Positions 25,580 to 29,286 of a DNA stretch of 64,000 nucleotides are shown in pieces. The stretch is from a bacterium (GTDB taxonomy: Bacteria; Patescibacteriota; Minisyncoccia; UBA6257; 02-FULL-45-10c), in NCBI GenBank assembly GCA_030700025.1, contig JAUYKI010000006.1, positions 13,428 to 77,427 on the forward strand, in the 5' to 3' direction. Within the stretch, counting starts at the first letter, position 1, and each line of letters starts with the position of its first letter. The position numbers and the translations under genes were made by a program. Below the pieces are notes generated by a model. It saw only the letters and a list, made by a program, of their open reading frames with translations. It was not told the DNA's origin and did not search any database.

Positions 25580-27376
25580 ATGACCGAAAAAGGCCCCGAC
25601 TTCCTCAAAAAGAAATACGACCTCCACAAAGCTCCGGAAACGGAAACCGCCGCCAAGCGGACGGAAAAAAGAACTAACGAAAAAGTCCCTCAAGCTCCGG
25701 AAGCCCGCATCCAAAACTACCTCAACCGCTTCAAGGAAATCATAGACCGGAAAGACCCGGAAAAACGGGAAAGAGGCCTGGAAGCCATAAAAAAAGTCCT
25801 CTACGATAAATTCGTCATCCAAGAAAACGAAATCCCGGAATCATACTTTGAACTCCAAAAACGGATTGCGAGAGAACAAGGCCATGGAGAAATTGAAATC
25901 TCCAAAGAACAAAAAGACCAGCTAACCGAAGTAGTCATTACCGACCAAAGAACCACCTTGGATAACTGGGTAGACTACCTATCCTCTCCAGACGCCACCT
26001 ATCCGGACTGGCTCAAATACTGGACTATCCGGAGCATTCTGGGAATAGGCGAATACGACAAAGAAAAGAAAGAATTCACTAAACGCTCCAAAAGCACTAC
26101 CAAGCCCTTCCTGGATATCAATCGGGAAGCTTTAGCCTATGTGCTAGACGCCGTTTCCAAAAAATACGGCCAACAGCACACCAATCTCCTTAACCTCAAT
26201 GAGCAAGAAAGAAAAGACTTTGAATCCCTCCTCCAAGGAGAAAACTTCGCCAAACTCTATGCCTGGGCAATAGAAAAAACTACCGTCGCTCCTCAAGAAG
26301 CCCTGGCTAATACCCAAGGCAAATGGATTAAATACAACCAAGGACAAGACCATATGCCCTTAGTCCAATCCCTTCAAGGACACGGCACCGGCTGGTGCAC
26401 GGCCGGAGAATCCACCGCCAAAACCCAGCTTCAAGGAGGGGATTTCTATGTCTTTTACTCCATGGACAAAAAAGGCAAACCCACCCTTCCCAGAGTGGCT
26501 ATCCGCATGAACGGCAATCAAATCGGAGAAGTCCGGGGAATTGCTCCGGATCAAAACTTGGACCCCTATATCGGCGATATAGTCCAAAAGAAAATGACCG
26601 AATTTCCTGACGGCAAATCTTATGAGAAAAAAGCTGGAGACATGAAAATGCTGACTGCCATAGAACAGAAAACCCTTCGGCTCCGCTCAGGGCAAGCCAA
26701 TCAAGAATTGACCAGGGAAGAATTACATTTCCTCTATGAAATGAACCAAAAAATTCAAGGATTCGGCTATCAAAGAGACCCGCGGATTGAGGAACTAAGA
26801 AAACAAAGAAATTCGGAAGAAGATATGTTGATTATTTTTGAATGTACGAAAGACCAGATTGCCCACACTCCGAAAGAAATCAATTCAAATACTAAAGCCT
26901 ATGTCGGTAAAATTAAACTGGGTATTTTTCAAAAACTACCAGAAAATATCGAGCATGTTTATACTGAATTCCCTGACAAGAAAGTTTTTATGAAAGAGAT
27001 TGTCTCGGATGAAGAAATTATTTCTGCTAAAACCGCCATTCAAAAACTCGAAGTTCAAGGGCACAAAATTGGCGACTATGCCAGAGATATGTTATCCAAA
27101 GTAAATTGGAAGGAAAGTCTAAAAGACTCCTACAACATTATCTCTATTTCTGTTGGGGAACTTTTCGGTGACGCAAACTACCATAATTATGCCGATATCA
27201 AAGCCAAAGCTCGAGAAAGTGGCCTAGACATTATTCCAGCTTCTCTCGCTCCATCAATTCGTTTGAATTATGATAAAAATGGCGAGTGGACAGTCCTCGC
27301 TATGGAAGCGATGCGCGACCGTGACGGTAGTCTTAGGCGTTTCGGCTGGGACGGGGTGGTTCTGAGTCGTGGTTGA
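25580..27376 (+). CDS. DGR target protein (variable C-terminal CLec/FGE-like tail; VR frameshifted in this assembly, probable true end 27444)
   Basis: 3-prime 136 bp (27306-27441) homologous to TR at 27744-27879; differences almost all at TR adenines; AAC-codon register continues past the annotated stop in another frame, ending ...RFFFVRK. Confidence 0.75.
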   Translation: MTEKGPDFLKKKYDLHKAPETETAAKRTEKRTNEKVPQAPEARIQNYLNRFKEIIDRKDPEKRERGLEAIKKVLYDKFVIQENEIPESYFELQKRIAREQGHGEIEISKEQKDQLTEVVITDQRTTLDNWVDYLSSPDATYPDWLKYWTIRSILGIGEYDKEKKEFTKRSKSTTKPFLDINREALAYVLDAVSKKYGQQHTNLLNLNEQERKDFESLLQGENFAKLYAWAIEKTTVAPQEALANTQGKWIKYNQGQDHMPLVQSLQGHGTGWCTAGESTAKTQLQGGDFYVFYSMDKKGKPTLPRVAIRMNGNQIGEVRGIAPDQNLDPYIGDIVQKKMTEFPDGKSYEKKAGDMKMLTAIEQKTLRLRSGQANQELTREELHFLYEMNQKIQGFGYQRDPRIEELRKQRNSEEDMLIIFECTKDQIAHTPKEINSNTKAYVGKIKLGIFQKLPENIEHVYTEFPDKKVFMKEIVSDEEIISAKTAIQKLEVQGHKIGDYARDMLSKVNWKESLKDSYNIISISVGELFGDANYHNYADIKAKARESGLDIIPASLAPSIRLNYDKNGEWTVLAMEAMRDRDGSLRRFGWDGVVLSRG

Positions 27377-27441
27377 ATGACGATGATGGTCGCGATGACG
27401 ACAAGTGGGACGGTAACGGCCGGTTCTTCTTTGTTCGCAAG
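27306..27441 (+). repeat. DGR variable repeat (VR) at 3-prime end of target gene
   Basis: ~136 bp homologous to TR; about 20 TR-A to VR-G differences, 2 non-A differences, one 1-nt deletion in a G-run (27349-27357). Confidence 0.8.
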
Positions 27442-27494
27442 TAGCTTAATTCTTAAATCTTAAGCCCTTTAAACATCTCTTTTTCCTTATCCCT

Positions 27495-27523: not shown

Positions 27524-27743
27524 ATATCCGAAAGTAGGTGAATACGCAGACGACTAAGGTTTTCTGCCACCCAAATCAGTATCCATATATCGAGAATATT
27601 TCAGACCAAGGTTTGAAATAGAGTGGTGTATGCAGATTCTTCATAAAAAATGAAGTTACTTGGTTTAGAATCTAGGGCATTATGATGCCGAATACGATAC
27701 AGCTCTGAGAGTATTCTAGGGGCGGTGGTGTAGACGGATTCTA

Positions 27744-27879
27744 AACAATACGCGACCGTGACGGTAATCTTAGGCTTTTCAACTGCAACAGGAATGGTTC
27801 TGAGTCGTGGTTGAATAACAATAATGGTCGCGATGACAACAAGTGGAACGATAACAACCGGTTCTTCTTTGTTCGCAAA
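27744..27879 (+). repeat. DGR template repeat (TR)
   Basis: A-rich with many AAC/AAT codons in the target frame (NNNNGRDDNKWNDNN); followed by hairpin CTCTCCCGAT-TTTGT-ATCGGGAGAG. Confidence 0.8.
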
Positions 27880-27884
27880 TTATT

Positions 27885-28250
27885 TCATTTCTCTCCCGAT
27901 TTTGTATCGGGAGAGTTTTGTTTTGTAAGCTGTCCAAACCAACCGCCAAGCATTTTACCCACCTCATTTATTTTTTCTGAAAGCGCAATATATTTTTTAT
28001 TATCAAGCGACTTGTTTTCCCAAAGAATAAGGAGAAAGATGTTGAGCGTATTGATTTTTTTAATTGCAAGCCTTACATAAGGCGCCTTTTCTTCTCGAGA
28101 AAGAAAAACGGCAACAGAAATAGCCTCTATTGTATCGGTAAATAGATTATCTATCTTTTGACCGATGGTATATCTATGGTTTTTAGGTAGGATCCGGTAA
28201 TATTCATACCAAAGCTGGTAACCGCCTTTGATTTTCTGCAGAATTGGCAA
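27885..28250 (-). CDS. avd: DGR accessory variability determinant (Avd-like four-helix-bundle protein)
   Basis: 121 aa; resembles bAvd/four-helix-bundle family (YQLWYEYYRILPKNHRYTIGQKI ... INEVGKMLGGWFGQL); TTG start; opposite strand to TR and RT. Confidence 0.65.
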   Translation of the reverse strand: MPILQKIKGGYQLWYEYYRILPKNHRYTIGQKIDNLFTDTIEAISVAVFLSREEKAPYVRLAIKKINTLNIFLLILWENKSLDNKKYIALSEKINEVGKMLGGWFGQLTKQNSPDTKSGEK

Positions 28251-28293
28251 TAAATTTGCGAGGGGGGGGGGCTTTTAATGGATCGTTATTGTT

Positions 28294-29286
28294 ATGAAAA
28301 TTCAATTGGCTCATAAATTTGAAGACATTATAAGCGTGGAAAATCTATTGGAGGCATGGAGAGAATTTATCCGAGGAAAACGGAGCAAAAAAGACGCCCA
28401 AGAATTTTCTATTAACTTGATAGATAATATTTTCTCGCTTCATTCCGACCTTGCTGATTTTACCTATAAGCACGGCGGTTATCAAGCCTTTAATATAAGC
28501 GACCCTAAGCCGAGGAATATCCATAAGGCCAGCGTCCGAGACCGCCTGCTTCACCATGCTATTTATAGAATTCTTTACCCATTTTTTGATAAAACTTTTA
28601 TTCCTGATTCTTATTCCTGCCGGATAAATAAGGGTACGCATAAAGCCATAAATCGGCTCCGCTCTTTTGCTTACGAAGTCAGCCGGAATAACACTAAAAC
28701 CTGCTGGATATTAAAGATGGATATAAGAAAATTTTTTGCCAATATTGACCACCTTATTTTACAGGATATTTTGAAGCAATACATACCGGATAAAAATATC
28801 TTATGGCTTTTAGATAGAGTGACTGAGAGTTTTTCCTCGCCATACGGCAATAATAAGGGTTTGCCCCTGGGCAATCTAACCTCCCAACTATTGGTGAATA
28901 TCTATATGAATGAATTAGACCAGTTTGTGAAGCATAAATTAGGAATTAGGCATTATATAAGATACGCGGATGATTTTGTGATTTTGCATGAAAATCGGCA
29001 GTATCTTATAAATCTTTTGCCAAAGATGTCAGTATTTTTAGAAACGCGATTAAAGCTTTTGCTCCATCCGTATAAAGTATTTATTAAAACACTTGCCTCT
29101 GGAGTTGATTTTCTTGGCTGGGTGCATTTCCCGCGCCATCGGATATTGCGGACCGTAACTAAACGAAGAATGTTTAAAAAAATAAATCAAAATCCTACAA
29201 ATGAAACCGCGGCTTCATATTGGGGATTACTTAGTCATGGAAATACGCACAAGCTGATTCATAAAATACGAAAGCTACTCTACTAA
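28294..29286 (+). CDS. diversity-generating retroelement reverse transcriptase
   Basis: 330 aa; RT motifs incl. YADD (IRYADDFVIL); DGR-type motif 4 LPLGNLTSQ (SQ instead of group-II QG); DRLLHHAI motif 2. Confidence 0.85.
   Translation: MKIQLAHKFEDIISVENLLEAWREFIRGKRSKKDAQEFSINLIDNIFSLHSDLADFTYKHGGYQAFNISDPKPRNIHKASVRDRLLHHAIYRILYPFFDKTFIPDSYSCRINKGTHKAINRLRSFAYEVSRNNTKTCWILKMDIRKFFANIDHLILQDILKQYIPDKNILWLLDRVTESFSSPYGNNKGLPLGNLTSQLLVNIYMNELDQFVKHKLGIRHYIRYADDFVILHENRQYLINLLPKMSVFLETRLKLLLHPYKVFIKTLASGVDFLGWVHFPRHRILRTVTKRRMFKKINQNPTNETAASYWGLLSHGNTHKLIHKIRKLLY

Follow-up and report, generated by a model that had tools for sequence, protein, structure and literature searches.

Contingency loci that carry a slippable tract in the 5' part of a coding sequence include the poly-G tracts of Neisseria lgt, pgtA, and hmbR/hpuAB and the poly-G/C tracts of Campylobacter jejuni (PMC2192423, PMC2193922, PMC3786947, and PMC4965091). 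Such loci of Neisseria, Haemophilus, and Campylobacter have a G/C tract of some 8–11 nt near the start of an open reading frame (ORF); the gain or loss of a single nucleotide flips the frame, and the length of the tract differs between otherwise identical strains. These loci gate surface or modification genes of host-adapted pathogens and are usually specific to a species or strain. Repeats are also found beside promoter elements: in Haemophilus influenzae, a (TA)n repeat lies between the divergent promoters of hifA and hifB. In porA of Neisseria meningitidis, a poly-G switch lies within the promoter spacer (PMC3639595). In the diversity-generating retroelement (DGR) of Bordetella phage BPP-1, the target gene with its variable repeat (VR), avd, the template repeat (TR), and brt all lie on one strand (PMC6182149, PMC5758913). 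Here, we analyzed a locus that resembles each of these systems in part.

The locus lies in a 64,000-nt stretch of a Patescibacteriota genome (hereafter the window, meaning the whole stretch of DNA that was analyzed) and is a DGR: it encodes a DGR-clade reverse transcriptase (RT) and the accessory protein Avd, and it carries an adenine-specific TR/VR pair, in which the VR occupies the 3' end of the target gene. Profile searches bore out both ORFs given in the earlier note. The ATG-started RT gene (28294–29286, plus strand, 330 aa) matches Pfam RVT_1 (E=4.1e-24), and the ORF taken mechanically from TTG 28250 (27885–28250, minus strand, 121 aa), which encodes the four-helix-bundle body of Avd, matches the bAvd profile PF22296 (E=1.1e-10) over profile positions 3–104 of 107. 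Comparison of the repeats places the TR at 27743–27879 and the VR at 27306–27441, both on the plus strand, with 17 of their 19 mismatches at TR adenines. The VR also has a 1-nt deletion relative to the TR (TR 27793–27794 'AA', VR 27356 'G') that truncates the target ORF as assembled (25580–27376, plus strand, 598 aa), for which a Pfam search returned no match; with the frame restored, this ORF would end at the TAG at 27442–27444. The plus strand thus carries the target, VR, TR, and RT, and the minus strand carries avd alone. A terminator-like hairpin with a T-run (27891–27925, plus strand) directly follows the TR and coincides in part with the 3' end of the opposite-strand gene avd, and the RT gene therefore probably needs a promoter of its own. 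The element shares with the BPP-1 DGR an RT and an Avd, adenine-specific TR/VR differences, and a VR at the 3' end of the target, but it differs in that avd lies on the opposite strand, head to head with the RT gene, and in that the TR has its own terminator-like hairpin. It further differs from prototypical DGRs in having a repeat tract between avd and RT, for which we found no counterpart in those elements.

We confirmed that this tract consists of ten consecutive Gs at 28262–28271, within GCGAGGGGGGGGGGCTTTTAATGG. This simple-sequence repeat is G10 when read on the plus strand and C10 on the strand of avd, where it corresponds to proline codons. No other G/C run in the 64-kb window reaches 7 nt, and an independent-base model predicts 0.04 runs of ten or more Gs for the window. 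The GC content, put at about 45% in the earlier note, is indeed 44.9% for the window and 41.5% for the local 2 kb. A chance homopolymer was ruled out by the expectation of 0.04, by the absence of any second such run in 64 kb, and by the conserved position of the tract.

This conservation became apparent in a comparison with related DGRs. At least 8000 RT homologs were found at E≤1e-30, many of them beside Avd and TR/VR pairs; the closest were 70–76% identical, and the named ones came mostly from MAGs of Patescibacteria (candidate phyla radiation, CPR). We examined a sample of 160 related loci from genome and metagenome collections. Among the 146 with a detectable avd, this gene was divergent from and immediately upstream of RT in 144, with a median gap of 34 nt when measured from the supposed avd start; the 16 loci without an avd match were nearly all on contigs truncated just upstream of RT. 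The comparison with homologous loci that the earlier note had proposed revealed a tract at the same position in 135 out of 144 instances (about 94%). In 119 of them it is a G tract of 6–14 nt, mostly 8–11 nt with a mode of 9–10 (three of 6 nt, five of 7, 17 of 8, 40 of 9, 31 of 10, 15 of 11, four of 12, two of 13, and two of 14), and in the other 16 a dinucleotide repeat takes its place ((GA)n in 11, (GT)n in three, and (CT)n in two). As for the remaining loci, one (L037) has G12 beside an assembly gap and eight retain only degenerate remnants. The sequence flanking the tract is poorly conserved, mostly with less than 0.4 bits per position, which makes the tract the most conserved feature of the region. 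In the 836 kb that flank these loci, the remaining G/C runs of at least 9 nt all proved to be this tract in contigs truncated just upstream of RT; besides these, there were two poly-C runs at extreme contig ends and a few runs of 7 nt.

We judged the origins of the dinucleotide repeats from average-linkage clustering of the RTs. The (GA)n repeats, of 5–21 units, belong to one RT subclade, where two loci whose RTs share 92% identity have (GA)21 and (GA)13, and the (GT)n and (CT)n repeats have at least two independent origins each; an additional (CT)19 occurs in one further clade member. Independent replacement by other simple repeats therefore points to selection for being repetitive rather than for one motif, and it seems that repetitiveness, not a particular sequence, has been maintained. 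In 19 distant phage DGR loci (RT identity 32–41%), we found neither a tract nor a divergent avd.

According to the earlier note, the tract lies in an intergenic region, with avd starting at TTG 28250. Comparative evidence favors an avd start further upstream, at the ATG at 28314–28312 on the minus strand, which places the tract inside the avd frame, and the region between avd and RT is probably coding rather than intergenic. Read in reverse complement, the RT His7 codon CAT gives the proposed start (28312–28314), and avd and RT would then share 21 nt head to head (28294–28314) in a quasi-palindrome (one strand ATGAAAATTCAATTGGCTCAT, the other ATGAGCCAATTGAATTTTCAT). The frame that starts at this ATG enters the tract in 104 out of 113 non-redundant poly-G loci, compared with 4 and 13 for the other frames. 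In 36 of 37 cleanly aligned loci this frame runs as far as the tract without a stop, compared with 6 and 1 for the alternatives, and antisense stops within the RT leader occur in none of the 37 in the ATG frame and in 13 and 36 of them in the other two frames.

The overlapped RT codons show a corresponding pattern. Across the clade, synonymous sites in RT codons 2–7 are nearly fixed: Leu5 is TTG in 26 of 31 loci, against 22% TTG among the other Leu codons of these genes (p=4e-13), and His7 is CAT in 34 of 36 loci, compared with 60% of His codons elsewhere in RT (p=3e-6). At the Leu5 position, TTA or CTA would create an antisense stop. Coding constraint on RT alone keeps the codon-aligned antisense frame partly open. 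The openness of the non-coding leader, together with the bias at Leu5, is more than this RT coding constraint would explain.

We found nothing resembling a ribosome-binding site before the supposed TTG start of avd, and the codon at this position, often not one that starts translation, is TTG in 52 loci and another codon in 35 (CTG in 13, TTA in 10, CTT in 8, and CTA in 4). Since TTG is enriched at this downstream position (46%, compared with 22% of Leu codons), an internal start may give basal amounts of Avd. In public gene calls, obtained with an extended query that biased the search towards extended forms, most close Avd relatives carry an extension of the form M-x-Q/E-L-N-F-H, followed by a short linker, 2–4 prolines, and LLPxLQK. 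The nearest relative (P0121, 85% identical) reads KAPPLANLLPIMQKIK, which is almost identical to the reading of the window with G9, and a few gene calls read HTHTHT, the translated (GT)n variant. Out-of-frame avd alleles are called from an internal Met (MQKIK..., 117–118 aa) or from TTG.

With its G10, the window is itself out of frame. From ATG 28314, it encodes a 36-aa peptide (leader ORF 28204–28314, minus strand, MSQLNFHNNNDPLKAPPPRKFIANSAENQRRLPALV) that ends at a stop at 28204–28206. With G9 or G12, the same ATG would open a continuous Avd of 142 or 143 aa, and G8 and G11 would again be out of frame. If the tract is a switch, the window allele would represent the OFF state and would need to lose one G to be ON (G9). 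A link between the leader ORF and the TTG by termination and reinitiation was rejected for the window, as the leader stop lies 44 nt downstream of the TTG.

Pooled over all loci, the fraction in which avd is in frame through the tract is about one-third, as by chance, until intact tracts (G≥7) are separated from decayed ones (G≤6). Among non-redundant loci with an intact tract, 23 out of 123 are in frame under strict counting and 26 out of 104 to 31 out of 113 under looser counting (about 19–27%); the strict rate is below the one-third expected by chance (p=4e-4). Compared with these 23 out of 123, loci with a decayed tract are in frame in 8 out of 11 instances (Fisher p=4e-4), and those with G≤4 in all six (Fisher p=8e-5). 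When these six are taken together with L156 and two clade members from viral contigs, an in-frame ATG lies just upstream of avd in all nine tract-less loci. One tract-less locus, L206, starts M-STT-LPVVER from an ATG that is the reverse complement of the RT His codon. A downstream TTG start predicts a random frame, and the fact that the tract-less loci are all in frame therefore argues for the upstream ATG as the functional start. This is the pattern expected if a DGR that loses its slippery tract would survive only when locked in frame. Among loci without a local start codon, we found no in-frame enrichment. Out-of-frame loci are not dead elements: the Avd bodies and RTs are intact whatever the frame, and in the 92 loci with a recognizable pair, TR/VR differences are adenine-specific (1627 at adenines and 139 elsewhere). 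The out-of-frame state would therefore be either transient, as in reversible switching, or bypassed, as in recoding.

We favor, with somewhat better than even confidence, the reading that the tract acts on Avd as a repeat-mediated frame switch and thereby gates the activity of the DGR. Under this proposal, translation of avd would start at the minus-strand ATG 28314, opposite the His7 codon of RT, and its frame would pass in antisense over RT codons 1–7 and the leader of RT, cross the poly-C tract as prolines, and lead to the four-helix bundle that forms the Avd body. During replication, slipped-strand mispairing would alter the tract length and bring the Avd body in or out of frame. The DGR RT requires Avd for cDNA synthesis, as established for the Bordetella DGR, and turning Avd on or off would thus gate mutagenic retrohoming in a heritable and reversible manner. 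The earlier note had proposed a slipped-strand phase-variation switch acting in a promoter or spacer. Slipped-strand gating of avd, and with it of DGR activity, is supported by the conservation of the tract across the clade, its replacement by other repeats, and its differences in length between otherwise identical natural sequences, whereas the promoter or spacer mechanism fits less well.

As in the contingency loci described above, the tract is a slippable G10 run, and the repeat would lie inside an ORF close to its start, where a change of one nucleotide flips the frame. The length difference between otherwise identical strains has its counterpart here in some near-identical sets, but not in most. 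The locus differs from contingency loci in that an accessory protein of a retroelement, rather than a surface or modification gene, would be gated, and in that its hosts are free-living or episymbiotic Patescibacteria rather than host-adapted pathogens. It differs further in that the tract is family-wide, across RTs that are only 55–76% identical, and in that it lies where divergent genes overlap head to head and is also part of the upstream region of RT.

Tract lengths at short evolutionary distance were compared among contigs that came from different samples and share an identical RT. Of nine such near-identical poly-G sets, eight have one consensus length each, and because of this constancy we suppose that switching may be slow. 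In the polymorphic set, three assemblies have G9 and four have G10; one haplotype occurs with either length and is otherwise invariant over 2.6 kb. In this set G9 is in frame, with avd called across the tract, and G10 is not. Between L185 and L190, a single G is the only difference over 1.9 kb. Homopolymer sequencing or assembly error could account in part for the polymorphic poly-G set. Among the dinucleotide tracts, (GT)7 and (GT)10 occur in contigs with 0 mismatches over 2.5 kb, where the variant contig also has a T-run indel elsewhere and assembly error is possible. If the tract works as a switch, most consensus genotypes would be OFF, an observation that fits a costly system kept off and recoding equally well.

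To our knowledge, the regulation of DGRs is largely unknown, and the CPR is the most DGR-rich group of organisms known to us. Adenine mutagenesis of a functional gene must be costly, and a repeat switch on an obligatory accessory protein would, if true, be a simple answer to how DGRs are regulated in the CPR. It would also mean that avd is routinely mis-annotated in this clade, being called from TTG, truncated to an internal Met, or missed, and that tract length is a marker, readable from sequence, of a DGR that is poised to act. Repeat-mediated phase variation would then extend from host-adapted pathogens to uncultured, environmental, ultra-small bacteria. Full-text literature searches and DGR surveys and reviews made no mention of the tract; an earlier description in the main paper on CPR DGRs is possible (Paul et al., 2017). 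In its mechanism, the proposed Avd frame switch would resemble the classical contingency loci, and it is of interest for both DGRs and CPR bacteria.

The main rival is recoding, which we regard as unlikely. In this case, Avd would be produced from out-of-frame alleles by RNA-polymerase slippage on C9–11 or by tRNA-Pro frameshifting on CCC-C, and the tract would be a fixed attenuator that keeps Avd low. CCC-C is a site prone to +1 frameshifting, and IS elements and dnaX provide examples of programmed frameshifting and slippage. Like such recoding sites, the tract is a long homopolymer within an ORF, situated between an upstream start and a downstream frame. Long homopolymers are known slippage sites (PMC5574713). 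The low in-frame rate of intact-tract loci and the consensus lengths that are stable across samples would both suit recoding, as would a mild excess of the most common frame class, which needs a +1 shift and includes the window (46 out of 104 loci, chi-square p about 0.05). However, the three frame classes comprise 26, 46, and 32 of these loci, and this variable frame relation stands against programmed sites, which normally keep one. Moreover, (GA)n, (GT)n, and (CT)n repeats, which substitute for the homopolymer, would bar tRNA re-pairing after a 1-nt shift and are poorer sites for RNA-polymerase slippage, and the G9/G10 polymorphism exists at the level of DNA.

A promoter-spacer tract of the porA or hif type, whose length would tune transcription of RT and perhaps of avd, appears still less probable. 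Here, a -35-like element overlapping avd codons 1–2 would be followed by the tract and, just after it, a -10. The window has a weak candidate RT -10, TTTAAT (28274–28279, plus strand), 2 nt after the tract, and a candidate avd -10 that is a perfect TATAAT (28327–28332, minus strand), 12 nt upstream of ATG 28314. Clade-wide, a TATCTT-like hexamer precedes the avd ATG by 7 nt. In a subgroup of 20 loci, TAnnnT directly follows the tract, in 14 of them with exactly 7 nt before the RT ATG (a leaderless geometry), and an nTGGCA -35-like hexamer lies 15–20 nt upstream, with a mode of 17–18. From these signals, avd and RT may both be leaderless or nearly so, and in this subgroup the tract may fill the RT promoter spacer as well, much as a poly-G of 9–11 nt or a dinucleotide repeat lies by promoter elements in porA and hif.

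Across the clade, the comparison with porA and hif breaks down. Over 113 loci there is no compensation between the lengths of tract and flank (Spearman -0.07, with additive variances) and no preferred -35 spacing, and any -10-like hexamer within 15 nt of the tract is found in only 52. Between TTGGCA and TTTAAT, the window would have a spacer of 24 nt rather than the 16–18 nt required, and dinucleotide tracts of 14–42 nt cannot be 17-nt spacers. The in-frame lock of tract-less loci is left unexplained, and the reading frame, which puts the tract in the 5' coding part of avd, is the dominant signal. A strict -35/-10 spacer model was therefore rejected, and we retained the geometry as an effect of the subgroup; the earlier note's reading of an intergenic promoter tract is probably mistaken in its details though not in its general idea; a transcriptional effect of the tract would be secondary at best.

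The Avd frame switch can be combined with these promoter signals in a broader, more tentative reading, which we consider possible at less than even confidence: DGR hypermutation in a very extensive Patescibacteria clade of these elements would be gated by a conserved hypermutable repeat in the 21-nt overlap zone, where the repeat would set the frame of Avd and abut the RT -10, with both genes probably leaderless. Most cells would then be DGR-off, and rare slippage variants would produce bursts of diversification, amounting to a long-maintained form of bet-hedging on evolvability.

It is very unlikely that the tract is a fixed structural element of DNA or RNA, for instance a binding site for a protein, an insulator that separates the divergent promoters, or a supercoil sink of non-B DNA. 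Non-B DNA is accessible to G runs, to (GA)n/(CT)n, and to (GT)n alike, and the tract is far more conserved than its flanks and tightly distributed in length (9.6 ± 1.4 nt across 113 loci), which would fit such an element. However, we found no partner or covarying sequence, and an Rfam scan of the window returned two tRNAs only, with no known RNA family at the tract. A structural role would leave the upstream ATG, the frame-specific absence of stops, and the in-frame tract-less loci unexplained, and it would have to be dispensable, as tract-less DGRs have intact genes and, where TR and VR were found, adenine-specific VR differences.

An artifact of assembly or sequencing (e.g. poly-G read tails), which the earlier note had allowed for, has practically no chance of being correct: some contigs (L112, L068, and L191) do start in or beside the tract, suggesting that assemblers struggle there, but the tract is contig-internal and lies between both partner genes in more than 130 loci. 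The independent assemblies that show it number well above 100, stem from numerous studies and platforms, and include one closed genome (CP066687.1). Because the tract and its repeat replacements are conserved across the clade, a private accident of this genome is excluded as well. The G10 of the window is shared by two different assemblies, as a Logan contig from SRR13727534, made with a different assembler, carries the same G10 and is identical throughout the region; the window's own population thus shows one length, G10, at the assembly level. The VR likewise has a single consensus across two assemblies of apparently the same sample.

At the start of the reverse transcriptase (RT) gene of this diversity-generating element (DGR) (28294-28314, plus strand) and at the homologous positions in all loci, RT codons 1-7 form a quasi-palindrome, ATG AAA ATT CAATTG nnn CAT, and the synonymous sites of these codons are almost invariant in all loci. 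As a consequence of this quasi-palindrome, the RT and avd proteins both start with M-x-x-x-x-x-H. The CAT codon of RT His7 is the reverse complement of the proposed avd start (ATG, 28314-28312, minus strand), and the need for an avd start codon may contribute no less than RT function to the invariance of this histidine. At the Leu position of avd 'codon 1' (28248-28250 in the window) and its homologues, we found TTG in 46% of loci, compared with 22% for Leu codons elsewhere. This TTG may serve as a weak internal start through which out-of-frame alleles still make a basal amount of Avd. Another possible role is as a piece of a -35-like nTGGCA element belonging to the RT promoter on the other strand. 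Within the subclade of related loci that carry a (GA)n repeat (L143, L126, L135, L056, L041, L148, and L072), the RT frame is open backwards across the repeat, which reads as (Arg-Glu)n, and in most of these loci the stretch from the repeat to the conserved RT His contains no ATG, GTG, or TTG. Because the RT frame is open through (GA)n, the repeat may lie within the RT and avd reading frames together, so that a single slip may shift both.

Several metagenomic contigs, those of the related loci L112, L068, L006, L132, and L191, begin in the tract or a few bases away from it. Such contig starts would be expected if the assembly graph breaks at this homopolymer, either because tract length is heterogeneous or because read quality there is poor. 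Among the members of the population carrying both G9 and G10, L192 differs strongly from L185-L190 in the 5' region of avd, over approximately 40 nt up to the tract, and is identical to them on the RT side. Recombination may have its breakpoint at the tract. Directly 3' of the G run, 53 of the 113 non-redundant poly-G loci have a T and 51 have a C. According to the account of these motifs in PMC12344412, G(n)T motifs of at least 8 nt are extreme T>G mutation hotspots; on that account, a hotspot at G(n)T would allow the tract to grow by substitution in addition to slippage.

When the template repeat (TR, 27743-27879, plus strand) was compared with the variable repeat (VR, 27306-27441, plus strand) in the window, G was the new base in all 19 substitutions (17 A>G, 1 T>G, and 1 C>G). 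Across 92 related loci (L002-L161), changes at adenines comprised 942 A>G (58%), 305 A>C, and 380 A>T. The A>G excess could result from a mutational bias of the RT clade or from selection for Asp/Gly codons. The VR in the window is also one base short (27355-27357, against TR 27792-27795), at a template adenine directly 3' of AAC. This loss cuts the target open reading frame (25580-27376, plus strand) short at 27376; the restored frame would end at a TAG at 27442-27444. The same one-base loss is present in the independently assembled Logan contig (SRR13727534), and TR/VR indels of any kind occur in only 4 of the 92 related loci. Repair of the deletion by re-homing would be impossible for the element while Avd is out of frame. 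Alternatively, the deletion may be a consensus artefact arising from a heterogeneous VR. Twelve nucleotides past the TR end, a strong terminator-like hairpin begins in the window (27891-27925, plus strand), with a 10-bp stem followed by a T-run; it suggests a separate transcript for the TR RNA, with its 3' end at this hairpin. The hairpin may act as the spacer RNA does in the Bordetella DGR, and its sequence is shared with the final avd codons on the opposite strand.
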